Below are positions 3,801-43,200 of a stretch of DNA of 64,000 nucleotides, piece by piece. Position 1 is the first letter of the stretch; each line of letters begins with the position of its first letter. Location: the NCBI GenBank assembly GCA_038141355.1, contig JAYQHX010000002.1, forward strand, positions 261,297 to 325,296, written 5' to 3'. The notes beneath the pieces are model-generated. The model saw only the letters and a program-made list of their open reading frames with translations, searched no databases and was not told the origin of the DNA. The DNA is from Methanobacteriota archaeon (GTDB taxonomy: Archaea; Thermoplasmatota; Poseidoniia; Poseidoniales; Poseidoniaceae). A program made the translations under genes and the position numbers.

Positions 3801-4443
3801 ATTCTCCGAGTCCAGAGATGATGTTAGCTCCAAGCCTGTCGGCTAATTCACCATCGAATGCTCCGGGGCCCAAGAATCGTATGGCTCTCTTATCAGAGAT
3901 TGGTGGGCCATTATCATCTGCTTCAGGATAAGCGAATGTTACAGAATCCCATAAGGGGTTTTCATTATCTGAGACCGCTCTCATTTCAAGGGGCTGGGCT
4001 ACGACAAACTCAGCATTGAAGAATCCACCACTGTGGATTCCTTGTCGCCCTAAAACGAGTGTGCAATCATTGAATTCACTAAACTCCTCGAGTAACTCAT
4101 CGCAAACACTCGTCATTGTGGTTGTATTGTTAGACCATCCTGTTGCGTTCTCAACAGGAGTTCTTGCGTATTCGATTTTGGCATCAAACGGCTCGGATTT
4201 CAATGATTCTTCAAAGAATAATTGGGACAATCCAACTCCGTATGCTAATACAGTAGTGATTACAAGAGAAGCAAGGAAAACACCAGCAATTACTGCCAAT
4301 CCTCTTTCTTTTCCTCTCCAGGCGCTTTGTCCTGCTAATCGTAATCGGCTTGGTAGTTCTGTAATTTTGTGTTTGTAAGATTGTAATCTAGAACGGTCTT
4401 TGGAAAAATCACTTGAACCCAATTCGATATCGGAATCAATCAT
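825..4443 (-). CDS. FtsX/MacB-type ABC permease (~1205 aa) with pentapeptide-repeat insert; split by a probable +1 error at G5 run 3619-3623
   Basis: ORFs 3616..4443 and 825..3638 join (CAGEIT-PENNEMIYC) if one base is removed; two FtsX-like motifs (QRRREVSIHRVIGA; QRQKELAVLQAIGA); lies between two ABC ATPases. Confidence 0.85.
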
Positions 4444-10182: not shown

Positions 10183-11139
10183 TCAAACACGAGCCATGAT
10201 TCCAATATTCAGTGGTATTGGAGCCAGGAAATTCTTGTGAATTGGGTTGTCTTTGTCGTGTCTCTTAACATAATGACTTAGAAGAGTAATAGCCGCAGAT
10301 CTTGGCAGAAGTCCCTTCCTAAACTGGTGAATAACTTCGAGCATCTCGTGCTTGTCTTGCCTGTCGAGATTCGGCAATCTTCCAATCAATCTCTCCATAG
10401 CATGAGCGATTTGTCCTCTCTTTGTTAGTTTTGATAGGAATTTTTGGGCCTCAGTCATGTACAGCAGTGCCACGTTTTCTGGGTGTTCATCTCTATCGAA
10501 AGATTCTGCGATGATTCTACCTAGTGCTCTTTTGGAGTCCGGAGCTCTGCTGAGTAGGAACAATTTGTGTTCAGCGTGGAATTTCATAATTTTCTGGGCA
10601 GTCCAACCTTCTTTTCCGATTCTTAGCCATTCGTGGAAGAAGTGAACTCTCGCTAGGAAATGTTCTGCTTGTAATGGATCGGTCAAACGACCTTCTTCGA
10701 TTACTGGAATGTGGGGGTATAACGTGGTGAATACTTTCGCAAACATACCAACACCATCTCGAACTGCTTGCGGGTTATCACCACGATATACCTTAACGCG
10801 CTCTACACCGCATGTTGGAGAGTCCTTCTTGAAAACGAAGCCGCTGATACCTTCTGATACTAGATAGTCCGATTGCATTTCTGCAAATTCTAGCATTTTG
10901 TCGGTGTAGTCGTTTCCGTTTTTGGGGTCAATGAGCGAAATCTTTTCCCCGTTCTTGACTAACCTGATTGTTGGTCGTGGCACCCCCATGCCGATACCAA
11001 CTTCAGGGCAGACTCCGATTAGGTCAAGGTGGTCGCTCCAAACGCGGTTGAGCACCCTAAACTCTGCGGCATCGCCGTTATAGCGAACCTTTTTCCCAAG
11101 GAGACAAGAAGAAACAGCGAGTTTAGGCTTCTCGGACAT
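10183..11139 (-). CDS. DUF523 (2-thiouracil desulfidase-like) + DUF1722 (YbgA) protein
   Basis: VSSCLLGKKVRYNG, CPEVGIGMGVPR, KKDSPTCG, EEGRL, FHAEHKLFLLSR. Confidence 0.9.
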   Translation of the reverse strand: MSEKPKLAVSSCLLGKKVRYNGDAAEFRVLNRVWSDHLDLIGVCPEVGIGMGVPRPTIRLVKNGEKISLIDPKNGNDYTDKMLEFAEMQSDYLVSEGISGFVFKKDSPTCGVERVKVYRGDNPQAVRDGVGMFAKVFTTLYPHIPVIEEGRLTDPLQAEHFLARVHFFHEWLRIGKEGWTAQKIMKFHAEHKLFLLSRAPDSKRALGRIIAESFDRDEHPENVALLYMTEAQKFLSKLTKRGQIAHAMERLIGRLPNLDRQDKHEMLEVIHQFRKGLLPRSAAITLLSHYVKRHDKDNPIHKNFLAPIPLNIGIMARV

Positions 11140-11140
11140 A

Positions 11141-11181
11141 AATAAACAGTTCTCATCTGAGTATATGAACTGCCGTTTATT
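11141..11181. promoter_or_regulatory. Imperfect inverted repeat overlapping the TATA-like box of the DUF523 gene, directly after the radical SAM stop
   Basis: AATAAACAGTTC...GAACTGccGTTTATT; contains the GTATATGAACTG 12-mer 22 nt upstream of ATG 11139. Confidence 0.4.
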
Positions 11182-11814
11182 TCAAGAAAATGTTTGCATT
11201 AAAATCTTGTATAAATCGCCCTTCTTTGACCTGAAGCCAGTTTGCATAATCCCATTATCAGTCATTACCAACTCTTCTATTGGAGAATTTTGTAGCCATC
11301 TTTCTTCATCTGCGTTTGAATATTTTTTAGTTAAATAGATTAATTCTTGGTTCGAAGACCCTCTCCATAAGAGGTTTTCTTGATTCAAAGAAGCGATGTA
11401 TGGTCCTGATGACAACAAATCAGTCATGGAAAGTAATTTTTGAACGGCATGGTCATTGCTACGACTTAAGGCCTCAAATTCAAAGCCTGTGAAAATAAAT
11501 ACAGATAACGGATTTTCACGTTTTGAATTTACAATATCTATAACGGAAGATATTGCCAATGCCTGCTCAAAAGGCTCACCACCGCTAAATGTAATTCCTT
11601 CTATGCCGTCTATAGAGTTGATCCACTCGGCAATTTTTTCTGGAGATGATAATTTATTGGAGGCGTGTGGATGTGTGAAATTATTGTAGCATCCCGGGCA
11701 GCCTATTGTGCAACCTTGGACCCATATGACCGCTCGAACTCCTGGGCCATTTGCTCTACTACGAGCCATTGTCGTGGCGACATTAAGTAACAAATTTTCA
11801 TCCAAACAAATCAT
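11182..11814 (-). CDS. NrdG/activase-like radical SAM (4Fe-4S single cluster) protein
   Basis: NGPGVRAVIWVQGCTIGCPGCYN (CxxxCxxC), ITFSGGEPFEQ, FTGF, GPY, WRGSSNQ; ATGA overlap with the upstream ATPase. Confidence 0.9.
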   Translation of the reverse strand: MICLDENLLLNVATTMARSRANGPGVRAVIWVQGCTIGCPGCYNNFTHPHASNKLSSPEKIAEWINSIDGIEGITFSGGEPFEQALAISSVIDIVNSKRENPLSVFIFTGFEFEALSRSNDHAVQKLLSMTDLLSSGPYIASLNQENLLWRGSSNQELIYLTKKYSNADEERWLQNSPIEELVMTDNGIMQTGFRSKKGDLYKILMQTFS

Positions 11815-13637
11815 TCCTTCAAACTGAATCTGCTGTGTCCATCCTCACCTTTATCAATGAAAAGTGTCAATCTTCTATCTCCAATTTGGTGTAGCCTGTT
11901 GAATATGAATAGGCTCATCGGGTTGACAATTTCTTGTTCGATTATATTGATTAGTCCACGGCCACCATGGCCAACTTTTCCTTTGCCAACCAAACCTTGG
12001 ACATATACTTCATCTAACTCTAATTCGAGATTGAAATTTTCGAGAAGGTGTTGTTTTATGCCTGTTAATTTAGCATTCATGATTTTTGACCTGATTGCTG
12101 GGTTGGTAATGAAATCGAATACGATTATGTTGTCACCGAACCGATTAAGCAATTCTGGCCGTCCTAAAGTTTCGTTGAAATGACCTTGAACAGCGTTCAT
12201 GAAATGAGATTTAGTGTCATTGTAAGATTTCGAAGGATCCGCATCACTAGCTCCGATGTTTGATGTAAAAATAATCACAGTTTCAGAAAAATGTACAGTC
12301 TGTCCTCGGCCGTCGGTTAGCCTACCATCTTCCAGAATTTGTAAGAATTTGTCTAAAACACGAGGATGAGCCTTTTCGATTTCATCGAATAATAATACGC
12401 TGAAAGGCTTTTCCGCAACCGCATTAGTAAGTTGTCCACCTTCTTCAAAACCAACATAACCTGGGGGCGCACCAATCAATCTTTGATCAGCATGTTCTTG
12501 ACTGAATTCAGACATATCAAATCTGATGCAATTATTCTCATCGCCAAAAATAAATTCGGCAACGGATTTTGCTAGTTCTGTTTTCCCAACTCCAGTTGGG
12601 CCAACAAAAAATAGAGTTCCCTTTGGTTTAGTCATTTGTCTTGAATGTTGAACTCCCGCTAAACCCAGAAATGCTCTTACAATCATAGTGACTACTCTGT
12701 CTACAGCTTCGTCTTGCCCTTTCACACGTTTTTTGATTAATTCACTGGCTTGAGCAACTTTGCTTTCATCTAGTTGCGTCCAAGGGGATTCCTTCTCTCC
12801 GAATCTATACAGATTTACCAAATCATCAATACCCATGCTAGAATCACTTTGTCTAGAAAGTGCAGCCATGTTTCTAATGTCTACCATAGTTAAACCGTCT
12901 GTGATTTCGGCAAGGAGTTGTAATGAATCTCGTTCATTTGATGAATCTTTTACAATGAAGTCTCTTGACATTTTTTGTATTGTTTTCCTTCGGAATTCAA
13001 GATTTGGAGTTGGAATGTTTACTATTTTCACTCTACTATCGTGGTTGTAAAACTTAGGAGGTAATGCCCCTAAGGTTGGAGTTACGATAACTAGTAAACC
13101 GGTAGGGGAATTAAATGATGTAGAACTTAATTGCGAATCATTTAGTTCTGTAATTGCTTTCGCCAAATTGGTTAGTTGATTTCTCTCTTCTGAATCTTGC
13201 TGATTCGGTGTCGTGAGTAAGTGCTCAGTCCAATCTATGATGAACATTGAACGCTTATTTGATTCAGCAGTCAGCACCTTTCTCATGGCTGGGAAAGCAA
13301 CTAATGGGTCGATATATGCGGCTGGTGCACAACCTCCATCTTGCGCATTAGAATCAATATCGAATTCATATTCATCGCCTTCCTCTTCAATACTCGAAGT
13401 TGACTCCATCATATCGTTAAATGTAGTTAGCTGAGATGCATTTGGGAATGATAACCCGTCTATGCTATCCCATGTGCCCTGGAGATTAAATGAGTCTTGC
13501 AAAGTTTCAGTTACCAATTGTGAAAGTCTAAGATTTCGTCCATCATTTGTAGGCCACAAATCCCTAACATTTCCATATAAGATTAGACAACGTCTAAATC
13601 CTGCTTCTCTAGTAATTGTTTTCTTCCATTCCATCAT
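11811..13637 (-). CDS. ClpB/ClpA-family AAA+ ATPase: degenerate N-terminal AAA-like region plus intact NBD2 (AAA_2)
   Basis: VKGQDEAV, GPTGVGKTELAK, RFDMSEF, LIGAPPGYVGFEEGGQLT, LFDEIEKAH, GRLTDGRG, RPELLNR; N-terminal LILYGNVRD / FIIDW remnants; no Clp-N repeats or IGF loop seen. Confidence 0.9.
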   Translation of the reverse strand: MMEWKKTITREAGFRRCLILYGNVRDLWPTNDGRNLRLSQLVTETLQDSFNLQGTWDSIDGLSFPNASQLTTFNDMMESTSSIEEEGDEYEFDIDSNAQDGGCAPAAYIDPLVAFPAMRKVLTAESNKRSMFIIDWTEHLLTTPNQQDSEERNQLTNLAKAITELNDSQLSSTSFNSPTGLLVIVTPTLGALPPKFYNHDSRVKIVNIPTPNLEFRRKTIQKMSRDFIVKDSSNERDSLQLLAEITDGLTMVDIRNMAALSRQSDSSMGIDDLVNLYRFGEKESPWTQLDESKVAQASELIKKRVKGQDEAVDRVVTMIVRAFLGLAGVQHSRQMTKPKGTLFFVGPTGVGKTELAKSVAEFIFGDENNCIRFDMSEFSQEHADQRLIGAPPGYVGFEEGGQLTNAVAEKPFSVLLFDEIEKAHPRVLDKFLQILEDGRLTDGRGQTVHFSETVIIFTSNIGASDADPSKSYNDTKSHFMNAVQGHFNETLGRPELLNRFGDNIIVFDFITNPAIRSKIMNAKLTGIKQHLLENFNLELELDEVYVQGLVGKGKVGHGGRGLINIIEQEIVNPMSLFIFNRLHQIGDRRLTLFIDKGEDGHSRFSLKE

Positions 13638-14563
13638 CTGTTTCCGCCTCCTAAACTTCGAGTATTTCCTCCGGTTGGGAAGCCTTTACTTCCCTTTGAA
13701 ATGCGATCTGGGTTTTTCCAATTATGCTGGACTGGGCCACTTTCGACACCAAATTTTTTCTCAAGCGTCACTAAGACTTCATCTAAGTGGTCTGCACATT
13801 TTCGGTCTACAAAACCTTCCATATCAAATTCCATTTCACCACTTTCTGTAACATCGAATCTAATGTGTCTTCCAGATGACAACTTTCCAACGATTGCTAC
13901 CTTGCCAGATTCTTTGACCAATTTTGGTTTTCCAACCACGAATCCCAGTTCATTCATTGAATTAATTATTGATGAAACAATGTGTCTGCGAAGCTCCTCT
14001 TCAATTACAGATTTGTTGTCTTTATCTCTAATCTCTTTAGCAGATTTTCTAGTCTCATCGATGAACCTATCCAATTCTGACTCATCAGTGAATTTCATTT
14101 TTTGTACCATGTCATCTACATTGTATCTTAGATTGGAGAATGAATCTATGTTCTCTTTTTTATCTAATTCGATTTTAATAAATTTCAATTCATTTTGTAG
14201 AGATTCTAGTTTAGCTGCTTTTCTATTAAGGGTCTGAGCATGTTTCTCTTTTCTGTGGTTGGAAATTTCTTCAATTTGTTTTGCTAGAGATTTGGATTGA
14301 TTAACTTGCCTAAGCATATAGTCTACATCGGCTTCATCAATCGATTTAGCCTTCTCTAAAACATTGCTAATTTCACTGATTTCTTCAGTTGCCCATGCAG
14401 CGTTCCCAGTTCGAGTTAAGGCGGATAAATCAGATTGAATCTCCGAACAAATTTGATTGATTTGTTTCCTTACCCTTTTTCTTCGCTCAACTTCTCGCTT
14501 TCGCTCTATCTCAAGTCGTTGCTTTTCGATTACCCATGCTGGAACAGTGCCTGCTGAACTCAT
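13634..14563 (-). CDS. Coiled-coil protein with C-terminal DUF2997-like domain
   Basis: Long charged heptad region, then IRFDVTESGEMEFDMEGFVDRKC...LEKKFGV resembling DUF2997, then WKNPD and Gly-rich tail; ATGA overlaps on both sides. Confidence 0.65.
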   Translation of the reverse strand: MSSAGTVPAWVIEKQRLEIERKREVERRKRVRKQINQICSEIQSDLSALTRTGNAAWATEEISEISNVLEKAKSIDEADVDYMLRQVNQSKSLAKQIEEISNHRKEKHAQTLNRKAAKLESLQNELKFIKIELDKKENIDSFSNLRYNVDDMVQKMKFTDESELDRFIDETRKSAKEIRDKDNKSVIEEELRRHIVSSIINSMNELGFVVGKPKLVKESGKVAIVGKLSSGRHIRFDVTESGEMEFDMEGFVDRKCADHLDEVLVTLEKKFGVESGPVQHNWKNPDRISKGSKGFPTGGNTRSLGGGNR

Positions 14564-17500
14564 TTTTCATCCCCCGCTGATTTTTTCTTTTCTGCTTTCT
14601 TGCCCCTAGAAATAATTTCTTCAAAGCGAGTATTTGTTGTAGGCAACACCTCTTTATCAACTAGTGGCGAGTGTTTTTCTACCAATTTGCCTAGGGAAAT
14701 GATATCTCCCCCTTTTCGGATTTTCTCGCCACACTGCGCTCCTATGAAGCCATCTTTCTTTTTGATTATTGCACTCCATAGATCATCAGATTTGATCATG
14801 AGAATGATTCTTTCACATACCGATTTTATACCTTCAACATCGCCATCTGAAATCTTTGAGATAGTATTACGAAGTGATTTTCTGAATAACTGGTCTAAGT
14901 TATTCTTTCCAAGATGCTCCAGAACTTCAGGATTCAAATCCTCAATCGCCTCTAATTCAGATTTGAAAGTCTTCTCTGCGATTGAACGCTTCCATCGAAT
15001 GTTCAAATCAGTTGGTTTGATTGTTTTTTCTAGAGTTTTGAAATTGTTTAATTCCAGCATTAATTCTTCGATATTTTCAGGGTTTCGAATATCGGAGAGG
15101 TATAATTTGGTAATTAAGCTACCACAATCAGATGCCATCGGTTCTCCCATATCGTTAATTTCTTCAATTATTTGTTGTATCTCTTCAGGGATTTCATATA
15201 TCGTTGGTTTTTCTAATGATTTTATCCACGTTGGGATACTATTCATCAATACCGGATTAATTAGTTCCGCAAATTTTGGTTTAGTACTTAATACTGGTGC
15301 GTTCCACAACTCTCTGACAAGTAACATTGGTAAATCATCAAAAACAGTTGGTATACTTTGTTTAAGCCCACTGACCCAAATCGAACCATTACAAGGGCGA
15401 TTTTTCTCTGTTGCATCAGAAATTATCTTGCAAGATTTTGAAATATAATTCAAGACTTCTTCTAGCGACAATGTATGCTCCCACTTTATATTAGTCGGCT
15501 CCTTCCAGGAGTCATCATTTCTTTCAACACCTAGTGCCATTAATTCTCTCATCAATTTGATAACTCTTAGCGTGTAATCTAGGCTCGCATTAATTTCTGC
15601 TTCATGGATGAATGGATTACGGTCTTTTCGTACAACGTCTGCGTCTTTTTTCGTTTTCTCGTCGATAATTCCTTTGCTATGTAGACCTGCTAGAGATATT
15701 GCTACTGATTCAGTAGATATTTGATTAGCTCCGGCCAATTCTTTTACAATGTCCTCGAAGTATCTTAATGCTTCAAATTTAGTGGAATTACAATGACCGA
15801 ATCTACAAACTTCTAACCTGGCAGCATCTTCCCATGGCAATCGCTTTTGCCCGTTATTGTGTAATTGCCAAGTCTCTGCAAGATTATTCCAACTTGCGCC
15901 AGAAGCTATTGATTCAAAGACATCTTGTTGAGCATAAGGTTCGACTATGGTCCAGCACCTTTCATTTATTGATTCATCATCTCCCATTATAGAGACTAAT
16001 TTTTCACAAGTACCAATAATGTCCTTCTCAAATAAATCAAATCGTTTGTCGATTAGAACATCAACTATGACGCCTATTACGTCAAATGAACAACCTTGAG
16101 ACAACTTACGGGACTCGTTGTAAATAGAGGCCATATTGCCTATATTCTTGATTTTAGAAATTTGCTCGGTTAACCATATAGTAAAATCAGATTCACTACG
16201 ACTCAATAAAAAGCAAGTTCTTTTATCCAACTCACTTCTTAATCTTCTATCAACTTCTGTGATTGTTTTGAAGCCCATCTCACTATTGAAGCATAATACT
16301 GGCAGTTGTACATTCAGGGATGTGTTTATTTTTCCTTTAATACTAATTTGGGCAGGATAAATCGTTCCATTTGCAGTACTAATTGAACCATTGGGAATTT
16401 CAGTATTGCTTCTTGATAGATCAAATCTTAGTGGGATTTCATCTTCATCTACTAGGTTCCACCCCTTTGTGTTTGTTAGATTTACAGTAGTCCTGTTTCG
16501 GAATAATTGTTCACATGCATCTTTTGTACCTGTCAATTTTATCAAATCATTATGGCCATTAGTTACCATCATACCTCTTGAATCAGATCCTATTTCTTGA
16601 TTCAATATTCGGTGTATGTAAATAACAGGGTCAAAATCTGCAGATTTTACCTTTTCAGTTGGTAGCTTTGATTTCATCATTTCAGAGAATCTTTCAAACA
16701 ACCTTTGCTCGATTTCTTTGTCATTGTTGATCACGGCTTCAATCCATTTCAAACGTATACTGCTTCCTCGTCTATGAACAAAAAATTCGGCAGTTTTGTC
16801 TTCAATTGAAATGGCCAATGTTATGCATATATCAATGAAATCAATGTCGTTTAAATCGCTAAGGCTTTCGTAACTCTGGATTACTAGGTCGTCAAAACGG
16901 CCAGCATTTTTCAGAGCTAGTGTAATATCGTCCCTGGTAGGTACACTAGCCTTCTGTGCGAATTTAGTTAGTGGATTCCAATTCTCAGTTTTAGATAGAG
17001 TTCCTTCAAGGATTCCTTTAATGCCTACACAGATAACTTCTTCACTGCCTAAGCATCTCACTAAACTGAGATTTTCCCTTTTTGCAGGTTCTGTAATTTT
17101 ACCTGTTTGTAATTGCCTTTTACCAGATTCAGTTACTTTAGCCGTGAAGTTCATGAGACGTTTAATTGCATTAGAAACTAGTCCTTTAAAGAGTGACTTT
17201 TTTGGTGCTTCAAGTTGCTTTAACTGTTGTTTTAAGCGTTCTAATTTTCTATATTGGTTATTCTTCACAGCCCCTTTGAAAACATTATTGTTTAATTGAA
17301 ATTCAATCAAATCGATATCTTCACGAAGTTGCTGAGATTGATTTTCCGGTTCTCGCTGATGGCTATCTATAGCTTTCAGATCTATTCAGAGAGCCGAGGG
17401 CTTCTTCGATTAATTCTGGTTCTTTTAATCCTAAACGTTCTGCAATTTCTGCAGCAGAAACATTGGGTATTTCATTAAACGAACGCAGCGTATATTTTTC

Positions 17501-17662
17501 AAGCAAAGTCAAATTACGTTCACTCGATAGTTGTGCATTAACAGCACATCTTTGCATAGGCCATGATGCTTCAATGACATGGACTGGAGAGAAACCAGGG
17601 TTTGACTTCTTCGAAATCAAATTAATCGCTTGTTTAGCATCCTCAGAGCATGTCACGGCCAT
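14560..17662 (-). CDS. Large (~1033 aa) protein with N-terminal wHTH and internal HEPN-like RNase domain; split by probable +1 error at 17374-17376
   Basis: 99-aa and 916-aa ORFs fuse (NRSE-AIDSHQREPENQSQQLREDIDLIEFQL) on removing one base; HTH VSAAEIAERLGLKEPELIEEAL; HEPN pattern LRYFEDIVK...VRKDRNPFIH. Confidence 0.7.
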
Positions 17663-20600
17663 CTATCATCCCTCCTTGTCCAATAACTTCCTGGATTTGT
17701 TTGTACATTGGTTTCTTTACCTTTGAGCCATTATCTCTGATGATTTCAACATTGTTTTTACTCAATGCGAATCGGTTTCCAAGAACAATTAGCAGATTCT
17801 GTGCTCGTGAGAATGCAACGTTAATTCTTTCAGGACTTTTGACGAACGAAGTTCCTGATCTTGGTATCCCACCTTGGTCGAAACCGTTTTTGGTTTGAAC
17901 CTTTTTTGGATTATAAGAATAAGGACGCACCTTCTTTTCAAAGGCATCCCTCTTTTTTTCACTAATTTCCGGAGAAACAACCATACTGACGAATATCACA
18001 GCTCTTTCCCCACCTTGGAATTTATCGACAGTATCAACCTTTACTGATAAGTTTGGCCACCTATTTCTCATTGCAACCCAAGAGTCATTTTCGTTTGCAA
18101 TTTCTCGGAAAGCGTTCTTTTGGTCACCATAAAATGTGATGAATCCAATCGGTAATCTTCCTTCATGGTCTAGATGTTGAAGCATCGAATCTTCAGGCCA
18201 ATTCTCTTGCTGAATCTCTTCTTTACGCTCTGCAACTTGCTGTTCAAATTGGTCGATCATATATTTGGCAATCCTGACCTCTCTGACATTCCTCCTTGAA
18301 GTAGTGTTGGATGGGCTTTCCTCCGAGCAGTATCGGCCGTCTCTATCAAATGTCGAATCAATCCATACGGCATGTTGTTCCTTAACAATCAGTTCCGAGC
18401 CTTCTCTTAGCGCAGAGCCTCCAGAGTCGTTCTTTACTATTGTAAATCCATGCTGCTTCTTTTTGTATTGCTCTTCTTCAGTCAAACCGCGAGTCAATTT
18501 ACCTTCATAGAATTCGTTAGTACAACGCATGATTTGTTCATGCATTCTATATTGTACTGTTAACGTTGATTTCAGCGTTTCATCGGCCTCTTTGAAATAC
18601 TCTGCAAAGAGGGCACTGGTGACCATCCTTTCGAATTTGCCGCCTCTTGCAAATCGTTCGTCTTCCATTTCATCTGCAGTTATTTCTTCTCTAGACTTGG
18701 GGTTTTTGAACGTTGGAGGAAGTTGCCTGTGGTCGCCAACCAATATAGCCTTCCTACCAAGTAGTAATGGTAGCAATATTTCGGGAGGAGTCGCCTTACT
18801 AATTTCATCAATGATAACGAAATCAAACGGGTCTTGTAGATACGGCATGTACCACCCCTTCCTTCCTGCAAAAGATGTGGTAACGCCTTCAATATTGATC
18901 ATACGTTTATACATCTGTTCTAAATCTCTAAGAGTAGATTTCTTGGGATTTTCCAGATCTTTTAGCCAATCGCTTCTAATTTGTCTCCAAATTTCGTTTG
19001 TTTCAATTTCGCTCTGATTGGCCATTAACCAATCATTGCCCGCCTGAATTATTTTTTCAGTGTTAGCTCCTGCTATATCAGTCGAGGTGGAATCGATTAT
19101 ACCACCAGGTAAACCCTGTAATATCTCATTCCAAGATGTGATGCTATCGTTAACCTTTCTTTGGACTAAATTCTTGCTTTCGTCAAGTTGAGAAATTTGT
19201 TTTTTGTTTTGCTCTAATTTGTTCTCCAATTCTTCGATACTTTTGCGAGAATCAATTTGAATAGATTGTAATTTTGAAGAAATCTTCGAAATAATATCCT
19301 TAGAAACATCTGTAATGTTAGAGAGTTCAGACTCTATTGCAGATTTTTCTTCCCGTAATTCTTCGATTGCTGTGTCTACTATAGCACCCAAATTTTCAGG
19401 GGCTTCGAAACTCTTGGTTAACTCAAGTAATTCAGGCATAGATTCATTGTCTACGAATCTTGATAATTCTCTGGTCCAATTTGTCCAGTCGTCATCGCTT
19501 AAACTTGATGAAGAACTTAATTCACTGATTCTATTCTTCAGTTTACTGGCTAATTCGTAATCTTCTTCTTGTACAGCTTTGCCTATATCCTCTCTTAGTT
19601 TCAGGACTTCAGGATCTAAAGAGCCACCACTCGGTAACTTAGTTAGAATGTTTAGAAGTTTTCCGATTTTTTCATCTCTTTCTTGCAACGTTTTATTGTT
19701 CTTTAGCGAAGAAATAAGATCATAATCTAGTTCCATGGCACGAGCCATTTCTTGAGTAATAAGGTCTGGTCTTCCATCGTCATTCAGGTTTATCGCAGCA
19801 GAAACAGTATCTTCTTGGGACAACATTTGATTTCTTTCATAGACGAGTTCGTTTTCATCGTCAAGAATTACCTTTCTTTGTTTTTCAATTTCTAGCAACT
19901 TACTGGATTGTTCTCTCCACAGTTCCTTTACGTTGTCCAATTCATTTTTGCACCGAATAACGCTTTGTTGACCAGTTCTCAGGAGTTCAGACTCCTCAAA
20001 CACATTTCCACAATGCTCACGGATTGATGGTATGAAGAAATCAGTGATTACATTGGTTTCCAAGAAAACTTCAGCCTCTGGATCAACAGATGCACTTCTG
20101 GCGAACCTCCTTATTGGTCTTACATTTGGCGTATGGGGTAATCTTGCTAGAGCATTATCTACGGCCAAATTGGATTGACTTGCTAATAATACTTTTTTTC
20201 CATCTTCAGTTGCCTGATTGATAATCTCTGCAATGACAGTAGTTTTCCCAGTACCTGGCGGTCCTTGTATAAGGAAAACATCTGGTGCATTCAATGCTGC
20301 TCTTACCGCCGACTCTTGTTGTTCATTAAGTGGAGCTAGAGGCTTATGCTGTAGGGCAGGAGGGGTTTTCATGCCGGGTCTTGCCTTACTAATGTCGAAT
20401 AACCAATCATGAACATTATTGTGGCTTGCTTCCAAATCTTTGAGCCTTTTCAGCCCATCATTTTGTCTTTTGATTTGGAAAAGGTCTCGTGAAACATCGT
20501 TAATCAAAAAGTGACCAATATGGGAATCTTTGAGACCGGAGAAAAGGTCGTCTTGATTTGGAGGCTCCACTCTCAATCTGAACTCTTTCATTCCATCCTT

Positions 20601-21722
20601 GAGGTTTGTAGGTTTGCCGAGTAACTTAACGTAAAAACCTGCATCTGCTTCATCGTCTCTTGTTGAACCAAGTTCTTGAGATTCTTCTTTTCTTGTCCAA
20701 ATATCTTCATTCTTTGAATGGCTATTTGGTATTCCGTGTAATGTTCCGCCCCTATTTCGCTTATTTTTTACCCTATTCAACACAGCATCAGGAGCTACTA
20801 ATGTGTAAACATAGAATGGGTCATCGGTGGTTGGAATTTTGATGTCAACAATTTTTGCACCCCATTCATTTCGGCGATTGAGTTCGTACATAGTATCAAG
20901 ATAATCAATCCAATCTGACATTCTTGAGCCAATATTTTGTTTGGTACTCTCCATCGCCCTCAATTTAGTTGCGAACTCGCCAGGGATGGCAACCATGTCC
21001 CAAATTTTGACACCATCTCTTGTTTCCATGTCAATTCTGGAGTGCAAAATTAAATCATTTTCATCCAGTTCATTGATTACTTGGGATGTGAATGCGCTAA
21101 GAATTATCCATTGCACAGTTGGATCCTTGTTACTCTTCTGTATTGTAACACGCGCCACTGGTAATTCTCCGTTTGCTCCTAGAAGTTTTCTTGCTATGGC
21201 ATCTTCTGGATGAGGAAACATATCCCATTGATCACTATCTTTGAATTGAGTCGATTTTCGGAAGCAGGTTCTCACTGATGCAAGAGGATACAACTTCTCT
21301 AGAAATTGTTCAGCAAGTTGGGACCAGCGTGCTCGGTTATCTCTGTTAACCTTTCTTTCATCACCAAGCCCTTCATTTCCTAGAGCGAGTAATTCATAGT
21401 TATTTGCAACCCATTGTGTTAAGCCCAAAGTGGCTTTAATTTGTTTTTTATTCTCGTCTCTTGAAACTTCTTTGGCGTCGCGTCCAAAGTAACCAGATTG
21501 ATAGTACATTGTCATACTACCGGAATGTTGGAAAAATGGGTTTTCTACTTCAGAGGAGATATCCTGATTGTTTTCCGAAATTGCATCTGAAGCATCTGTT
21601 CCACACCAATCACACTCTTCAAATTCATACGAATTTACTTCGTTACATTCGGGACATGTCCAGCTTTGTTCACTTCTCGGAGCAAATGGATTAAACGGTT
21701 TATCTATTCTCCTTCTAGCCAC
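17643..21722 (-). CDS. Upf1/DNA2-like superfamily 1 helicase with N-terminal Zn ribbon and coiled-coil insert
   Basis: LNEQQ, IQGPPGTGKTT, ASQSNLAVDN, IIDEISK, VGDHRQLPP, QYRMH, VDKFQGGE, RINVAFSRA; WTCPEC...CDWC; GTG start with GGAGGGTGA SD. Confidence 0.92.
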   Translation of the reverse strand: MARRRIDKPFNPFAPRSEQSWTCPECNEVNSYEFEECDWCGTDASDAISENNQDISSEVENPFFQHSGSMTMYYQSGYFGRDAKEVSRDENKKQIKATLGLTQWVANNYELLALGNEGLGDERKVNRDNRARWSQLAEQFLEKLYPLASVRTCFRKSTQFKDSDQWDMFPHPEDAIARKLLGANGELPVARVTIQKSNKDPTVQWIILSAFTSQVINELDENDLILHSRIDMETRDGVKIWDMVAIPGEFATKLRAMESTKQNIGSRMSDWIDYLDTMYELNRRNEWGAKIVDIKIPTTDDPFYVYTLVAPDAVLNRVKNKRNRGGTLHGIPNSHSKNEDIWTRKEESQELGSTRDDEADAGFYVKLLGKPTNLKDGMKEFRLRVEPPNQDDLFSGLKDSHIGHFLINDVSRDLFQIKRQNDGLKRLKDLEASHNNVHDWLFDISKARPGMKTPPALQHKPLAPLNEQQESAVRAALNAPDVFLIQGPPGTGKTTVIAEIINQATEDGKKVLLASQSNLAVDNALARLPHTPNVRPIRRFARSASVDPEAEVFLETNVITDFFIPSIREHCGNVFEESELLRTGQQSVIRCKNELDNVKELWREQSSKLLEIEKQRKVILDDENELVYERNQMLSQEDTVSAAINLNDDGRPDLITQEMARAMELDYDLISSLKNNKTLQERDEKIGKLLNILTKLPSGGSLDPEVLKLREDIGKAVQEEDYELASKLKNRISELSSSSSLSDDDWTNWTRELSRFVDNESMPELLELTKSFEAPENLGAIVDTAIEELREEKSAIESELSNITDVSKDIISKISSKLQSIQIDSRKSIEELENKLEQNKKQISQLDESKNLVQRKVNDSITSWNEILQGLPGGIIDSTSTDIAGANTEKIIQAGNDWLMANQSEIETNEIWRQIRSDWLKDLENPKKSTLRDLEQMYKRMINIEGVTTSFAGRKGWYMPYLQDPFDFVIIDEISKATPPEILLPLLLGRKAILVGDHRQLPPTFKNPKSREEITADEMEDERFARGGKFERMVTSALFAEYFKEADETLKSTLTVQYRMHEQIMRCTNEFYEGKLTRGLTEEEQYKKKQHGFTIVKNDSGGSALREGSELIVKEQHAVWIDSTFDRDGRYCSEESPSNTTSRRNVREVRIAKYMIDQFEQQVAERKEEIQQENWPEDSMLQHLDHEGRLPIGFITFYGDQKNAFREIANENDSWVAMRNRWPNLSVKVDTVDKFQGGERAVIFVSMVVSPEISEKKRDAFEKKVRPYSYNPKKVQTKNGFDQGGIPRSGTSFVKSPERINVAFSRAQNLLIVLGNRFALSKNNVEIIRDNGSKVKKPMYKQIQEVIGQGGMIDGRDML

Positions 21723-21808
21723 AAAATCACCCTCCTATTTTACTTTATTTTGTTGTATTTCATTAAATGTTCGCCATCATTAAGAATTATTTACATTTGA
21801 GTCTAGTT

Positions 21809-22699
21809 TTATGAATTGAAAAGTGCGCTTCTTGCTAAAATTCCCTTGGCAAACTGATCGGCATTTTCATGTGATTTGATCCATGTTTTTATTACAGTTA
21901 TCAAATCATCAATTTTAATTCCAGATTTTCGATAATCTTTAGGTGCCTTAACACTACCATAGCAAGCCATAAAACCATCTGGATGGAAGAACCAGCCGTC
22001 TGGAAATAGACCTTCTAATTCAGTTAACAATATTCCTTTTTTCTGCATTTTTGGAGAAATGTTGACGCACTGGCCACAATCTGATTGACGAATGACGGCT
22101 TTAGCGCCTCGTTTGAAGAGATGAGATGCCTTGATTTTTGTTCCTGGCGGTATAATCGCAACGCCGCCATTAATACTAAGCGACTTGGCAGCAGTTTTTT
22201 GCTTCTTAAAACTTTTTTCGCTACGAATTTTTCCAATCAATAATTCAGCAGATCTAGAAACAATTTTTGTGTCACTGAACCCTAATCTTCGCCACGAATC
22301 AACCAATTCAGCAAGAACAACATTATCTTTACAATGTTTACCTGAATCTGTTAAATTGAGTTGTTTCGCCCAAAGTTTTAGCGCATCATAAATCGGCTTA
22401 TCTATACTTTTCATCACTTCAACAATCAATCCGAATGCGCTTCCGAACTCGAGACCTTTTACGGCTTGAGAACCGTTACTAAGGTCTATTGCTATACTTC
22501 TTTCATCATCAACTACTACATCAGCACGAGCAAAAATCCAGGCTGCATGCGGTCTCAAAATTTTCAATAACGCCGCACTAAATGCGGCATCTGCGTCAAC
22601 TATTTGATGAGTAACTATCGATATGGGGTCATCTTTCGTTAGCCAATTTTTGACTTTATTCATCTCTTTTAGCGTTTTTCGGCGGTATTTTTCTTCCAT
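21809..22699 (-). CDS. MYG1/DHH-superfamily-like protein (canonical DHH triad not visible)
   Basis: IVTHQIVDADAAFSAALL (motif I), AIDL, GSAFGLI, LTDSG and C-terminal WFFHPDGF resemble MYG1-family motifs. Confidence 0.55.
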   Translation of the reverse strand: MEEKYRRKTLKEMNKVKNWLTKDDPISIVTHQIVDADAAFSAALLKILRPHAAWIFARADVVVDDERSIAIDLSNGSQAVKGLEFGSAFGLIVEVMKSIDKPIYDALKLWAKQLNLTDSGKHCKDNVVLAELVDSWRRLGFSDTKIVSRSAELLIGKIRSEKSFKKQKTAAKSLSINGGVAIIPPGTKIKASHLFKRGAKAVIRQSDCGQCVNISPKMQKKGILLTELEGLFPDGWFFHPDGFMACYGSVKAPKDYRKSGIKIDDLITVIKTWIKSHENADQFAKGILARSALFNS

Positions 22700-22723
22700 G
22701 TTATATCCTTGGTTTGTTAGGTA

Positions 22724-22730
22724 CTTAAAT
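22724..22730 (-). promoter_or_regulatory. TATA-like box (ATTTAAG) for a probably leaderless transcript starting near 22699
   Basis: 24 nt between the box and ATG 22699, typical archaeal spacing. Confidence 0.5.
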
Positions 22731-22752
22731 GAAGGAATTTACAATCTTGCTA

Positions 22753-22811
22753 GTCAACCGCAGTCAACTCTCAAAATACTCAGATTAATGTTGACTCAAC
22801 AATTTGTCAAC
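22753..22811. promoter_or_regulatory. Cluster of four GTCAAC/GTTGAC boxes, candidate operator
   Basis: GTCAAC at 22753 and 22763 (10-bp period); GTTGAC 22790 + GTCAAC 22806 form an inverted repeat with 10-nt spacer. Confidence 0.5.
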
Positions 22812-22816
22812 TTAGA

Positions 22817-23519
22817 TTATTCTTCTTCGAATGCCATTAATGCTAGAAGTGCTCTACCTACATTTGTTGTAACTCCATCCGTAATCTGTCTTGATTATTA
22901 GTGATGCATCCTTCAATGGCTTTCGTCCAGAGGATTCATTTTGTTTAGTTCCATTTAGGTGTTTGATTATTGCATCTGTTTGTACAGGACCATTAGCTGC
23001 AATAAACCTCATGATCTTCATACTTCGTGGTTTTTGTAATGCTTCAAATCCAGGTCCTAAGTTAGTGAATAAGTCAACTTCTATTGCCAATTCATCTGCT
23101 TCTAAGGTTGGGTTGTGCGCGGAATCTAGAGAAGTGTAGACTGGGAATCTGTGAGTAAATCCGCTTATTGCTGAGGCGATAGCCATCAAATTTGTTCCAC
23201 CGGCTGTACCTACGTGAAATTCAATTGACGATTTTGAATATTTAGATCTAATTTCAGATACTGCTTCATCAAATAGTTCCATATATCTATCAACGGTATC
23301 ACTAGTCCATGGTTGATTAATAATTTTTACAATTACTTCAGATATTCTACGAGTGTGTTTTCTCCAAGCATTCTCCATATGGCTGATTGTAATATCGGCA
23401 AATGATTGGTCACTTGTAAATAAAACAACAATTTGAGGCTTGTATTTGGCTAGAGGTGCTTCCAAAACGCCAGGTGTTCTACCAATAGGCTGTAATACAA
23501 CTTCAATTGCTTCGGGCAT
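22817..23519 (-). CDS. CARF + winged-HTH transcriptional regulator (Csa3-like, ~233 aa); probable +1 error near 22871
   Basis: CARF-like motifs QPIGRTP, VVLFTS, FHVGTAGGTNLMAIAS; wHTH KIMRFIAANGPV...LKDASLI; removing one base restores WSTTNVGRALL...EEE*. Confidence 0.7.
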
Positions 23520-23543
23520 GTATATCCCATAACTCGCTAGTAC

Positions 23544-24348
23544 TTAGATACAATACGGGCAAGAAACCCCCGCGCACAAATTCTGGGCTTTCTGCCTGTT
23601 CGGGAGTTAGAGGCTCTCTGCACGCCCAGCAAACCTCAGAAGTCGTTTCTTTCAATTCTCCATCAACTCCAACCCTTCTATCGAAGACGAAGCATTCTCC
23701 ATTCCAGTGGGCACCGCCTGTTTGTTCGAAATAATTCAATATTCCACCATGGATTTGGTATACTTCTTGATAGCCTTGGTTTAGCATTACAACGCTTGCT
23801 TTCTCACAGCGTATACCTCCGGTACAGAACATTACAACAGGCTTGTCTTTCGGAATATCAGAATTTGCGACCGCATCGGGGAACGCTCTGAAGGTTTCAA
23901 TATCCAAGTCAACCGCTCCTTCGAAAGTACCCATTCTGACCTCGTAATCGTTTCTAGTGTCAAGAATAGTAACTTCTTTTCCTTCATCGAGCCATTGTTT
24001 GAATTCGTTCGGGTCTAATGGTGTGCCGGTGAATTCATGGGGTTTCACGCCAGGAACTCCTAGTGAGATGATTTCTTTTTTCAGACGAACGTTCATTTTT
24101 CTGAAAGCGCAATCTTCTGATTCAGAATATTTGACCCAGATGTCGCCGAACCTCTCATCGGATTTGATATGTTCAACGAAGATATCGATTTTGTCTCTAG
24201 GTGCTGAAAGAAAAATGTTGATTCCTTCAGGAGAAAGTAGGATTGTGCCGTAAATTCCGTGAGAGTCACACAGAGACTTCAGGGGTTCTTGCAACTCTTC
24301 AAACTCAGGCATATCAAGGAACTTGTATGCTGAGATATTGGTCCAGAT
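23544..24348 (-). CDS. trhO: tRNA uridine(34) hydroxylase, rhodanese family (UPF0176/YceA); probable +1 error at 23567-23571; apparent ATC start
   Basis: NISAYKF, GTILLSPEGIN, DTRNDYE, FCTGGIRCEK, GGILNY, CFVFDRRV; corrected C-terminus GVSCPYCI*. Confidence 0.85.
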
Positions 24349-24357
24349 ATTATCACC

Positions 24358-24720
24358 TCAAGCCGCTTTCACGCCTTCAGGCCACAATACGAGAATCAGT
24401 GTTTGTCCTCGGGTGCGTGGAGTGTGAGTAGACTCCCTGTCCATCCATACAATAGATCCCTCTGGATAGATGCCGTCTTCATCCCAAACTTCTCCTTCGA
24501 GTACGAGATAGCATTCTCCACCTGGGTGAGAATGAGGCATGAAAGCATCGATGTCTACATCGCTTACTACATCATAAAGAACCAAAGAAATTGCATCCTC
24601 TCTTGCCAACTTGCCAAGGCGCACTCCTGTTCCAAAGTCACGCCACTTGACATTCTCGTCAATCCAATCTCTGTCAACATTGAAGCTGAGCCAATCCGCT
24701 AGTCCGTGCCAGAACGGCAT
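24358..24720 (-). CDS. ChrR-like cupin domain protein
   Basis: PHSHPGGECYLVLEG...DEDGIYPEGS...HTP cupin motifs. Confidence 0.8.
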   Translation of the reverse strand: MPFWHGLADWLSFNVDRDWIDENVKWRDFGTGVRLGKLAREDAISLVLYDVVSDVDIDAFMPHSHPGGECYLVLEGEVWDEDGIYPEGSIVWMDRESTHTPRTRGQTLILVLWPEGVKAA

Positions 24721-40224: not shown

Positions 40225-40299
40225 TAGAATAATTTGGACCCTTTTTTGGATAATCGAATTATGACAACAATCAAATGCAATCACGCGAAGGTCATTCGT

Positions 40300-43200
40300 A
40301 TGGTGAGGGGTCGTACCTACACGGTTTTCATAATTCTCACCTTGATGGTTGCATACCCGTTTACTCCGATGGTTGAGTTGCATGACTCTGAAAACAATGA
40401 AACTTCAGGGCGTGCTCAAACTGTTTGGTCTGGGAGTATGGTTTTGAATAATCATTTCACTGTACCTGTGACTGATGAATTAATCATCTCATCTTGCACC
40501 AATGTCACGATGTCTAGTGGTGTTAGAATATACGTTGAGGGCAGATTAACTGTTGAAGGAACAAAGTCCTGTCCCGTATATTTTGATTATGCGGGCGGAG
40601 GAGACCACATGGGAATACAGTTCAATACCTCATCTAATGGGCGTGGAAGCAGGATTGATAATGCCTCGATAATACACTCTACTTATGGTATCACAATTTA
40701 CGGTTCAAATCCACATATCGCCAATGTCACAATTTTCGATGCTGATGATGTAGCAATTGATATGTTCAATTCTGCAACTCCAACAATTAGGGACTTAGAA
40801 ATCAATGAAGCAGGTCAAGACTGGGTAGTTCCAACATATTGGAGATATGGAATCGGTTTGTCAGTTGGAGCAGGTTCAGCACCAAATGTAGATGGTCTGA
40901 AGGTAAGTAATGCGGTCACTCGTGGGTTGAATATGTGGGGTAATTCTGGAGGATTATTCCGAAATATATCGATAGACAATATTTCAGGCGCCACACTGGC
41001 CATATCTGCTGGAATCTGGGTTGAAGACAGTATTCCATTAATCCAATTCGCTCAGGTAGACAGGTCTGACCACGGGGTTTTTGTTAGACACATCACTGAT
41101 GGTGCTACGACCAGAGCTGTCATCAAAGACATGGAAATTACAAATTCAATGTACAAGGCGATGGTTTTGGACAAAGAAGATCATACAAATTACACAAATT
41201 ACCAGAGCGCAGTCATCAATGGATTGAATATTTCAGGAACCGGAGGCCCAGGGGCTAAAACATCTGGAATCGCTACGGCTACACTTGAGATAAATGCTAC
41301 AGGAGCCTGGATTGAAAATGCTCATCTCGAGGATAATACAGCAGTTGGAATCAAAATGTATTTTGTTGATTCGACAACCATTTTTTCGAATCTATCAATT
41401 AACAATACTGGAGGTTCAGGTAACGGTGCTAACGCAGCAGGAATTTCAGTTCGTTCATCTTATTTCGCCCCTACTTTCAACAATTTAGAGGTTTCAAACT
41501 CACCAGGGCCAGGTGTCTATGCAAGAAGCGGCGGAGCAATTCAAGGAATGGATTGGAACTTACATGATAATGGCCAAGAAGGCTTCTACTTGGAGAGTGC
41601 TGCAACGATAGTTGATGGGATAATAACTTACAATAATTCAGATTCAGGTGTACACATTAATGATGCAAGATATGTGTTCTTGTATAATGTCACTTCACAT
41701 GATAACGGCGATTCAGGCCTGTTGTTTGAAAAAGCGAATGATATTGAATCTACATCAGGTGATGTTGTTTGTGTAAATTGTTCTTCGACTAACGACACGA
41801 AAGGTGTGACAATAATCGATTCCGTCGACCTATTTTTAGAGGGACTTCATGTTAACGACCCTGTCACTGGCCCAGCTATTATTGCTGATAATGGTGGACT
41901 AAACATTGGTGTGCAAGGAGGTCTATTCCATCTAAAGAATGTACAAACATGGTTGAATAGTACAGAGCCTGCAATAGAAATTACATCAGCGGAAGCAGAA
42001 ATCGATGGCTTGGAAATGTTAGGTTCTCATGCTGGATTACATTGGGATGCAGACCATAATCAAGAGAGAAATAGCATACTGTCGAATGCTACTTTATCCG
42101 GTGCAGATTGTTTGATTTTGTCAAACCACGACCAATTATATGGAACAAATAATACCATTTCCAATGATTGTACTGGAGAATTGAATTTTACTTCGGTTAA
42201 ACTCAATTGGACTGACTTTGAAGATTTGGGCGCTCACGTACTGAACGTGGATACTAACTCTAATCTTCATCTGCATCAACCTGTGAATATCGATTATCAA
42301 TCAGCGGTTATTTCGGGTAGTGGTTGGATAGAAGAAGCATGGGACTTACATGTATGGGTGCCAAACAATAACAGCAACGGTATTCCTTCAGCGTTTGTAG
42401 AACTGGATTTTGACCAATTAGAGTCATCAATAAATGACGATACTGACGATTACGGTTGGACATCTTTCCTAGACCTAAGAGGTAAGAAATTCACCACTTT
42501 AGGCGAGAGTCCTTACACGACTGTGACCATTGATTGTTCATATGATGGAGTTTCTAATACTACGACTACAAGCTTGGACCAGGACCAAATAATAACTTGC
42601 CATCTTCCACTATCCAATCAACCACCATTCTTAATCTGGGATACTCCAATCGACCAGACAGTTTATCCTTCAAAATCTGAGGTAATTTTTGATGCATCTA
42701 GGTCTTGGGATTTGGACAATGATACTTTGACAATCAAATGGACATCTTCGATAGATGGGATTTTACTCGAAGGAGGAATATCAACATTTGCTGCAAACGA
42801 AGTAGATAACCCAAACCCATTGGTGAATCTTTCAGACGGAATTCACGATATTGAGTTAGAAGTATGCGATGGCGATTTTTGTGTCTCGGAAATTAGGACT
42901 ATTGAACTAGCCAACCAAGCGCCAGTAATTGTAATTTCAACAGACCCTACCCTAAACCCATGGGGAGAACTCATCTCTCCGATTACCCAGTCTGTCCATT
43001 ACGACCTGAACGGAACTTATGACCCTGAAAACGATGCTATGACCTGTTCATGGTCATGGCTATCCTCTTCAGTCACGATTCCAGATTGCACAGGAGAAGG
43101 AAATCTTTCATTTGCTAGCGCACCATCAAATATTTTTGACCTGACATTGCTTGTTAGTGATGGAATTAATCCTCCATCAGAATACATCATACCCGTTGAA

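Follow-up and report, generated by a model that had tools for sequence, protein, structure and literature searches.

What is a compact block of seven genes, set between ordinary genes, doing in the genome of a marine archaeon? The block lies in a 64,000-nucleotide stretch (hereafter the window) of contig JAYQHX010000002.1, part of a metagenome-assembled genome (MAG) labelled Poseidoniaceae (GenBank assembly GCA_038141355.1), where the open reading frame (ORF) calls place seven co-oriented genes, here named g1 to g7, on the minus strand at positions 11182-23519. A first-pass annotation, made from the DNA letters and their ORF translations, had proposed an undescribed seven-gene system with an antiviral or stress function. 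The explanation we consider likely is a horizontally mobile, Mokosh-related conflict system, probably antiviral or anti-plasmid, which acts on RNA; the locus would represent an uncharacterised branch of the Mokosh family. The earlier proposal stands in so far as no named system matches the block in full, while its core turned out to be a relative of Mokosh and five genes, not seven, are conserved over distance. Synteny, mobility and domain content support an antiviral or stress system, and we infer the defence role from genomic context and mobility.

The pair of genes in the middle of the block gives the first part of the answer. g3 (17643-21722; 1359 residues) encodes an MkoA-family, Upf1-like superfamily 1 helicase with Walker A at 20241-20264 and motif II at 18792-18809. 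It matches the PADLOC model MkoA at 6.7e-85 and 9.1e-76 and Pfam families AAA_11 (2.1e-34) and AAA_12 (9.9e-30), and its relatives in the PDB are DNA2, IGHMBP2, UPF1 and SEN1, in agreement with its first-pass description as an Upf1-like helicase. Some 400 residues at the N-terminus gave no match, and motifs I and II are separated by a long coiled-coil insert. No kinase domain was found on g3 among 21 Pfam matches at E<=0.01, and the MkoA profile aligns from position 417 onward.

The partner gene g4 (14560-17662; about 1030 residues) is predicted to encode a LexA/MkoB-like winged helix-turn-helix (wHTH) followed by a HEPN domain. As assembled it consists of two pieces (17363-17662 and 14560-17385), the first of which, 99 residues long, matches the N-terminus of MkoB in PADLOC (1.2e-7), covering the N-terminal 70 of 610 profile positions. 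Across 24 members of the g4 family, Pfam detects LexA_DNA_bind in 17 and DUF4145 (PF13643), which is classified as a HEPN family (PMC3710099), in 19 (best E 3e-4; the homologue P0001 reaches 15.6 bits, the gathering score being 23.1). R681, N682 and H686 of the RNxxxH motif are invariant in all 24 sequences, and the window reads RNPFIH (15604-15621). The PLD family was absent from the Pfam matches of g4 and its 24 relatives, and a PDB profile search with g4 gave weak or compositional matches alone. The first-pass assignment of g4 as wHTH-HEPN is upheld by these data, which support an MkoB-type N-terminal wHTH joined to a HEPN domain at the place where Mokosh has PLD, with RNase activity predicted.

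Mokosh was defined by a COG1112 helicase and a PLD nuclease, to which type I adds a kinase domain on the helicase (10.1101/2022.05.11.491447). Links have been drawn from these two components to the animal piRNA proteins MOV10L1 and PLD6 (10.1101/2022.12.12.520048), and a 2025 preprint distinguishes types I and II only. Set against type I, the locus shares an MkoA-family COG1112-type helicase, a partner with an MkoB-matching N-terminus, the pairing of helicase and nuclease, and RNA as the likely target. It differs in that the partner carries HEPN or PIN and not PLD, that no kinase domain was detected on g3, that three obligate genes (g5 to g7) are added, and that the marine clade has in addition a CARF-wHTH gene and a DHH/MYG1-like gene.

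How the block came to its position is apparent from its relatives. A same-genus genome (L057) aligns to the window until position 11178 and resumes at 23547 with only 13 nt between, so that the island can be delimited to 11179-23546 (12,368 bp); it contains the seven genes and almost nothing more. The flanking genes, described as ordinary in the first-pass annotation, are by Pfam indeed a 2-thiouracil desulfurase/DUF1722 gene (10183-11139) and a UPF0176/rhodanese gene (23503-24312), and in seven same-genus genomes these two are adjacent, about 58 nt apart. The GC content of the island is 0.382 as compared to 0.407 and 0.418 in the flanks. The junction is located within the 3'-terminal part of the UPF0176/rhodanese gene (23503-23560), which overlaps the start of g1 by 17 nt; relatives match residues 1-253 of the 269-residue rhodanese protein, and its last 16 or so residues are encoded by island DNA. 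An ORF and Pfam survey found no integrase, transposase or replication gene in the island, and no obvious target duplication was seen.

Occurrence of the block is patchy. An orthologue of g3 was found in none of 40 relatives, of which 24 belong to the same genus and 16 to the same order; the 38 g3 matches in these genomes are partial (E>=1.3e-10) and mostly located in open frames of about 560-890 residues. The g5 profile was positive in 6 of 401 genomes of the phylum, the window's own included, and in the phylum of a carrier labelled Rhodothermales in 1 of 401, namely the carrier itself (0 of the 400 other sampled genomes). When one genome each of 185,579 species was searched with the g4 profile, four loci were found, labelled Thermoplasmatota, Methanobacteriota, Poseidoniaceae and Rhodothermales; 33 further loci came from metagenomes. 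The contig labelled Rhodothermales (L010, 12.4 kb) contains nothing but the island, and its host assignment is therefore not firm. No relative was found in IMG/VR with the g4 patterns, and 50,697 phage records had no tblastn match to g5. Given the clean 12,368-bp insertion, the absence of a g3 orthologue from all 40 relatives, the 6/401 and 1/401 genomes and the carriage on plasmids described below, the block is, by genome comparison, horizontally acquired and sporadic, not core.

Do the seven genes belong together? Synteny was counted with g4 as anchor in 37 other loci, each gene being scored where at least 200 nt of room was available. Order and orientation were the same for g1 in 17/17 loci, for g2 in 22/23, for g3 in 33/33, for g5 in 29/30, for g6 in 25/25 and for g7 in 18/18, so that the co-oriented seven-gene arrangement of the first-pass annotation is syntenic elsewhere and not a product of chance. 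The one locus lacking g2 in its place (L021) has a different ORF upstream, and the one g5 miss (L044) has a diverged g5-like ORF starting MSSWGSF downstream of a 690-nt insert. This insert, in the g4-g5 interval (L044:1606-2299), is unrelated DNA and GC-rich by eye. In a further locus (L016:1180-3704) the g1-g2 spacer measures 530 nt, and g2 is separated from a shortened helicase match by about 1 kb.

Within the block the genes overlap as first noted: the stop of g3 and the start of g4 share 20 nt (17643-17662), and ATGA overlaps connect g4 with g5 (14560-14563), g5 with g6 (13634-13637) and g6 with g7 (11811-11814). The 20-nt overlap is retained in other loci (positions 4354/4373 in L009, 5753/5772 in L010 and 5983/6002 in L011; the junction was compared across L009-L043), which suggests that g3 and g4 are translated in a coupled fashion.

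Beyond the marine clade, a smaller unit persists. Four of the g5-positive genomes of the phylum carry distant variants with about 19-39% identity, and 4/4 keep the order helicase, nuclease-position protein, g5, g6 and g7; a fifth g5 match (L056) is a 2.8-kb contig with the end of g5 followed by g6 and g7. The nuclease position is occupied by a 993-residue protein with tblastn matches to both g4 pieces (L052), a 399-residue DUF4145 protein scoring 30.5 bits and thus above the gathering score of 23.1 (L054), a 693-residue DUF4145 protein (L055) and a 680-residue protein without Pfam match (L053). On the bacterial side, tblastn of g5 against 72,556 plasmids matched plasmids of Polaromonas, Leisingera, Acinetobacter and Photobacterium, and the Polaromonas g5 as query added six Moellerella plasmids. 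The core is thereby present on 10 of 72,556 plasmids, of which 7 are conjugative. All five genera are proteobacterial, and in 5/5 the operon is annotated as AAA domain-containing, PIN domain-containing, hypothetical, AAA family ATPase and 4Fe-4S single cluster domain-containing protein, generic RefSeq names, with PIN in place of HEPN. In Polaromonas the helicase matches MkoA at 7.6e-102, and the PIN protein has a weak MkoB match at its N-terminus (1.4e-4). Neither the distant nor the plasmid versions have g1 or g2. Judged by gene order, the unit conserved over large distances is five genes (g3 to g7), not seven, and its predicted nuclease domain is exchangeable, being PLD, HEPN or PIN.

The missing g1 and g2 would also be expected if independent systems merely stood side by side, namely a two-gene Mokosh variant (g3-g4), a three-gene module (g5-g7) and a regulatory unit (g1-g2). 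Defence genes do cluster in islands, viperin, DarT and prokaryotic Argonaute (pAgo) genes adjoin variants of this one, and the AAA core of g6 matches the ATPases of other candidate systems (PDC-M37B, DolB). We nevertheless regard this explanation as improbable, because the g5-g7 trio follows an MkoA-like helicase and a nuclease protein in the 37 marine loci, the 4 distant archaeal loci and the 5 plasmid genera wherever there is room, because this linkage persists despite the HEPN/PIN swap and identities of about 20-40%, and because stop and start codons overlap throughout.

What surrounds the distant and plasmid versions indicates the kind of process they take part in. A viperin gene (pVip, 2.3e-69) lies beside the system at L054:933-1766. 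On the Acinetobacter plasmid the system is directly followed by genes for a VakA-like kinase and a pVip-like protein (L061:15424-16928), with DarT upstream; two pVip-like radical SAM genes (L062:1917-3985) and an HsdR fragment accompany it on the Photobacterium plasmid. Phd/YefM is found in the Polaromonas neighbourhood, ArdA and an integrase in that of Moellerella. In L052 (4295-7334; contig C12 of genome G202) two co-oriented genes stand directly behind the radical SAM gene, one for an RNase III with a double-stranded RNA-binding motif (256 residues) and one for a 758-residue Piwi-domain protein (pAgo); an ordinary aspartate carbamoyltransferase gene comes next. In L053 (18268-19323; contig C1 of genome G098) a 351-residue fusion of RNase III and RNase T (DEDD) is encoded upstream of the helicase with a 184-residue ORF between, and a DDE transposase gene lies downstream of the radical SAM gene. 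The proximity of viperin, of VakA-like and pVip-like genes, of DarT, Phd/YefM, the HsdR fragment and ArdA argues for a role in conflict, and the helicase related to Upf1, IGHMBP2 and SEN1, the invariant HEPN motif, the PIN domain of the plasmid versions and the neighbouring RNase III and Piwi genes argue for an action on RNA.

An action on RNA would also be found in a cellular, non-immune operon for RNA surveillance or stress, in which RNA quality control or repair is combined with a chaperone and regulated through CARF by damaged RNA ends, as in RtcR-RtcAB. Upf1-type helicases work in RNA quality control and ClpB-type proteins are stress chaperones; RtcR-type CARF regulators sense cyclic-phosphate RNA ends, as discussed in PMC11090510, and Cas10 was not found in five carrier genomes. 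A housekeeping operon of this kind is hard to reconcile with the sporadic distribution, the clean insertion into a conserved locus, the carriage on conjugative plasmids, the interchangeable nuclease domain and the known defence genes in the neighbourhood, and we judge it highly improbable. The same plasmids raise the question of who benefits. If it served mobile elements as a weapon or for addiction, the system would target rival plasmids or viruses or stabilise the element, to the benefit of the element over the host; this is in keeping with its presence on 10 plasmids, 7 of them conjugative, and with the nearby antirestriction gene ArdA, integrases and toxin-antitoxin genes. We give this version little credence: the window island has no integrase, transposase or replication gene, and no copy was found in the 50,697 phage records, nor in IMG/VR with the patterns used. 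It overlaps, moreover, with the mobile conflict system that we favour, since a weapon of this type would still be a conflict system.

The three genes added to the helicase-nuclease pair are the least expected part of the system. g5 (13634-14563; 309 residues) encodes a protein in which coiled-coil sequence is joined to a conserved alpha/beta domain at the C-terminus. Its N-terminal half is helical or coiled-coil, and its PDB profile matches are compositional. In the C-terminal domain R192, C256, W282 and P285 are invariant in 42 diverse members, and the invariant G250 is followed by F or Y. The family comprises 554 representatives (E<=1e-3) among 1.84 billion sequences; it is rare but diversified. 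Pfam gave no match for 18 close members and no fused domain in ten longer family members, and the DUF2997 likeness suggested in the first pass proved weak: PF11211 was found in 0/18 close and 2/42 distant members, with a best E of 0.005. We rejected g5 as a canonical glycyl-radical protein, as it has no RVxG[YF] motif.

Among 18 marine-clade sequences that are otherwise 45-87% identical, the Gly-rich g5 tail, GPVQHNWKNPDRISKGSKGFPTGGN..GG, does not vary, and the final 30 residues are near-invariant in that clade. Such a tail could be read as the precursor part of a cluster resembling those for ribosomally synthesised and post-translationally modified peptides, with g7 as maturase and g6 as handling ATPase, and radical SAM enzymes have been proposed to modify a peptide effector in other conflict systems (PMC7159879). 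The tail is not retained in distant archaeal or plasmid versions, for which reason we also rejected it as a universal feature of g5; g7 is of the small activase type without SPASM-type extension, the cluster has neither protease nor exporter, and helicase and nuclease are invariably present. A peptide-maturation cluster is hence the explanation to which we assign the least probability, and an extremely small one.

g6 (11811-13637) encodes a ClpB/ClpC D2-type AAA+ protein with Walker A (12579-12602), GYVG pore loop (12450-12461) and Walker B (12369-12395) all intact, as the first-pass label of a Clp-type AAA+ had implied. It matches Pfam AAA_2 (3.2e-53) and ClpB_D2-small (3.3e-4) and ClpB D2 in the PDB (6.7e-79, residues 291-579 only), which leaves one AAA+ module (about residues 291-580) preceded by an unmatched N-terminal region of 290 residues. 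The score against TIGR03346 is 275.5 bits with a cut-off of 1232.1, and the PADLOC matches to PDC-M37B (6.6e-33) and DolB (4e-21) both cover the AAA core only. g6 is thus like ClpB/ClpC Hsp100 proteins, DolB and PDC-M37B in its D2-type module, pore loop and intact Walker motifs; it differs from ClpB/ClpC in having a single recognisable AAA+ module and, by sequence search, no N-domain or middle domain. Partner proteins of Dodola and PDC-M37 had no match among the eight island proteins in PADLOC.

g7 (11182-11814; 210 residues) has its CxxxCxxC motif at 11689-11712. It matches Pfam Fer4_12 (2.3e-32) and the NrdG model TIGR02491 (2.9e-31; 108.5 bits, below the cut-off of 126.1), and its PDB relatives are pyruvate formate-lyase activating enzyme alone (7.3e-13). 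GCxxxCxGC, GGEP and GSxNQ are invariant in 16 sequences. This supports a small radical SAM protein of predicted glycyl-radical-activase type, so the earlier radical SAM assignment can be narrowed to NrdG/PflA-like. The cluster motif GCxxxCxGC(Y/C)N, GGEP and the small size are shared with NrdG and PflA; the score below the NrdG cut-off, the lack of an NrdD- or PFL-type substrate in the locus and the constant coupling to AAA+ and g5 set g7 apart from them.

Is there a regulator, and what would it sense? g1 (22817-23519; assembled ORF 22854-23519) encodes a CARF domain and a wHTH in a Csa3-like architecture. In PADLOC it matches CARF3 (1.2e-8; the label is a model name only), CARF1 (2.9e-7) and Csx1 (1.2e-4), and it reaches 3e-4 against the Csm6 model TIGR02672, far under the cut-off. 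Distant positional homologues match HFX_2341_N (2e-13; 51.2 bits against 30), CARF_Card1 (26.4 against 24.6 bits) and HTH_24, in line with the CARF-wHTH reading of the first pass; a PDB profile search with g1 gave weak or compositional matches alone. g1 resembles Csa3-type CARF-HTH regulators in having CARF before a winged HTH, about 220-240 residues, a position adjoining the operon and a palindrome alongside. It is unlike the Csa3 regulators of CRISPR loci in that no CRISPR-Cas and no Cas10 were found in the five carrier genomes.

The g1-g2 spacer of 117 nt (22700-22816) contains the palindrome GTTGAC-N10-GTCAAC at 22790-22811, the sole match in the 64-kb window (0.01 expected), followed by more copies of GTTGAC. 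Of 14 distinct g1-g2 spacers from other loci, 10 contain the palindrome, with variable inner N10, and by eye the other four have one-mismatch or shifted variants. GTTGAC reaches 17.0 copies per kb in the spacers as compared to 0.79 per kb elsewhere in the loci (21-fold). Since the palindrome is kept with variable inner sequence and the hexamer is enriched in the spacers, the pattern is a putative protein operator, which could be bound by g1 or by the wHTH of g4. As to the ligand of CARF, Cas10 (TIGR02578, TIGR02577) was found in 0/5 carrier genomes with controls positive in 6 and 5 of 14 genomes, for which reason a type III CRISPR source is not supported in these incomplete genomes.

g2 (21809-22699; 296 residues) had been described as MYG1-like. 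It had no Pfam, PADLOC or NCBIfam match, and its family consists of 234 clusters, every one unnamed. An invariant motif THxxVDADAAFSAALL resembles DHH motif I, and the motif region weakly matches the DHH-type structures 4py9 and 3w5w (E 0.5). DHH (PF01368) was detected in 1 of 15 g2 members (E 0.068), and MYG1 (PF03690) was absent from the matches at E<=10 in the same 15; with a stored g2 homologue as query, a feature-based Atlas search returned a MYG1 cluster at rank 20 (score 0.93). In 151 genomes of the phylum PF03690 had no match, but the controls were equally silent and this search is hence uninformative. The original label remains weak, g2 being possibly a DHH/MYG1-like phosphoesterase.

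These parts can be assembled into a working model. The g3 helicase, with the 5'-3' polarity known for the Upf1-like family, would load on foreign RNA, RNA-DNA or replication and transcription intermediates and bring or license the RNase, whereupon the HEPN (or PIN) partner would cut RNA. g1 would bind the palindrome and tune transcription of g2 to g7 in response to a nucleotide or RNA-end ligand. As no Cas10 was found in carrier genomes, the ligand could be a cleavage product of the HEPN RNase that carries a 2',3'-cyclic phosphate, a candidate modelled on the RtcR-type proposal for CoCoNuTs, and g2 might trim or remove this ligand. More speculatively, g5, g6 and g7 would form a complex in which the GYVG unfoldase remodels or presents a protein for the radical chemistry of g7. 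Candidates for this protein are g5 itself, the nuclease and a viral protein, and the complex could serve as activation switch or as second effector arm. g5 is a candidate substrate of g7 because the invariant G250 is followed by F or Y and C256 is invariant as well.

Carried further, and here with low confidence, the model would make g5-g6-g7 a new immune effector or switch, in which an Hsp100-type unfoldase feeds g5 or a viral protein to an activase-like radical SAM enzyme, and protein-centred radical chemistry (installation of a radical, a cross-link or backbone cleavage) arms or executes the RNA-targeting helicase-RNase; through its recurring neighbours RNase III and pAgo, it would be connected to a prokaryotic pathway of small-RNA type, akin to the MOV10L1/PLD6 branch in piRNA biogenesis. 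This more ambitious extension is a doubtful one.

Several observations weigh against a Mokosh-related RNA-acting defence system and its proposed mechanism. The published hallmarks of Mokosh, the PLD nuclease and the type I kinase, are both missing here. HEPN matches in Pfam within the window's own clade stay below the gathering score (best E 3e-4). hhalign of the HEPN family against the Polaromonas PIN protein found no similarity (probability 0.3), so that two weak PADLOC matches are all that speaks for an MkoB-like N-terminus common to both kinds of protein. The case for defence is drawn solely from context and mobility, the roles given to g5-g7 are purely inferential, and gene neighbourhoods were seen for a minority of the 554 representatives of the g5 family. 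The carrier MAGs are incomplete (79.7% for G000), and a missing Cas10 therefore does not equal absence. No PFL- or NrdD-like family was found among the island proteins, though g7 resembles the activase of a glycyl-radical enzyme, and several carriers are labelled as aerobic organisms, at odds with an activase-like g7.

Could the block simply be a described system under another name? It shares with type II and III CoCoNuTs (PMC11090510) a Upf1-like helicase, HEPN-type RNases, coiled-coil proteins and RNA as predicted target. It differs from them in having neither McrB GTPase nor McrC, and its CARF-wHTH protein is small and not an RtcR-like CARF-ATPase-HTH; PMC11090510 describes CoCoNuTs without ClpB-type ATPase and makes no mention of radical SAM proteins (0 occurrences). 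PADLOC-DB 2.0 (2023) and NCBIfam 20.0 (2026) have no specific model for g2, g4 or g5, and among the island proteins PADLOC gave a strong match to a system component for MkoA only, so that no named system is matched in full. A search of the available literature found no helicase-HEPN/PIN-AAA+-radical SAM operon and no 'type III Mokosh' or 'Mokosh-like' system.

Mokosh is common yet mechanistically unsolved, and the locus reveals a putative branch of it with an exchangeable nuclease domain. The helicase-nuclease pair is here obligately joined to a predicted unfoldase and a non-viperin radical SAM protein, neither activity being part of published Mokosh or of matching PADLOC and NCBIfam models. 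The unexplained g5-g7 module could prove new in kind. The system spans the boundary between archaea and bacteria, rides conjugative plasmids and is a candidate for immune defence in a group of marine planktonic archaea, with related loci labelled Poseidoniaceae and Thermoplasmatota. Since plasmid versions occur in culturable bacteria, it is directly testable.

Not every gene of the first-pass annotation is intact as assembled: g4 and g1 each need correction for a 1-nt insertion. In g4 the insertion near 17374 (AAA in the window, AA in the closest relatives) splits the ORF; in g1 the insertion near 22874 leaves 221 residues as compared to 236-243 in homologues, and the C-terminus reads on in a different frame as VTTNVGRALLALMAFEEE. 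The 99-residue piece of g4 is 97% identical to the N-terminus of the 1032-residue homologue P0001, 34 of 36 database homologues of g4 have 998-1048 residues, and all 29 complete copies in the fetched loci are single ORFs of 1025-1048 residues. Contigs from four public runs were aligned on 17000-23000 (depth 3-10; contigs rather than reads). The X1 and X3 contigs, otherwise identical to the window, are without the extra base at 17374 and at 22874, and the X6 contig, with 79 differences over about 1,970 aligned letters, also lacks that at 17374. This evidence is strong but not final, and both frameshifts are probably MAG assembly errors. In view of the homologue lengths and the X1, X3 and X6 contigs, we treated g1 and g4 as intact genes of the population. 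Programmed frameshifting in g4 was considered and rejected, the extra base being simply missing from other contigs. Both single-base insertions lie inside the island, and none is evident elsewhere in the ORF map of the window.

A search of 10500-24500 against Rfam (E<=0.1) gave 0 matches. The remainder of the window is normal dense coding sequence, with 97.8% covered in a greedy ORF map, and the large ORFs scanned in it are surface or transport proteins. Two of them are giant, namely a 2054-residue ORF with FG-GAP repeats (55479-61643) and a 1542-residue ORF with beta-helix and PKD domains (40234-44862); both probably encode surface proteins unrelated to the island.

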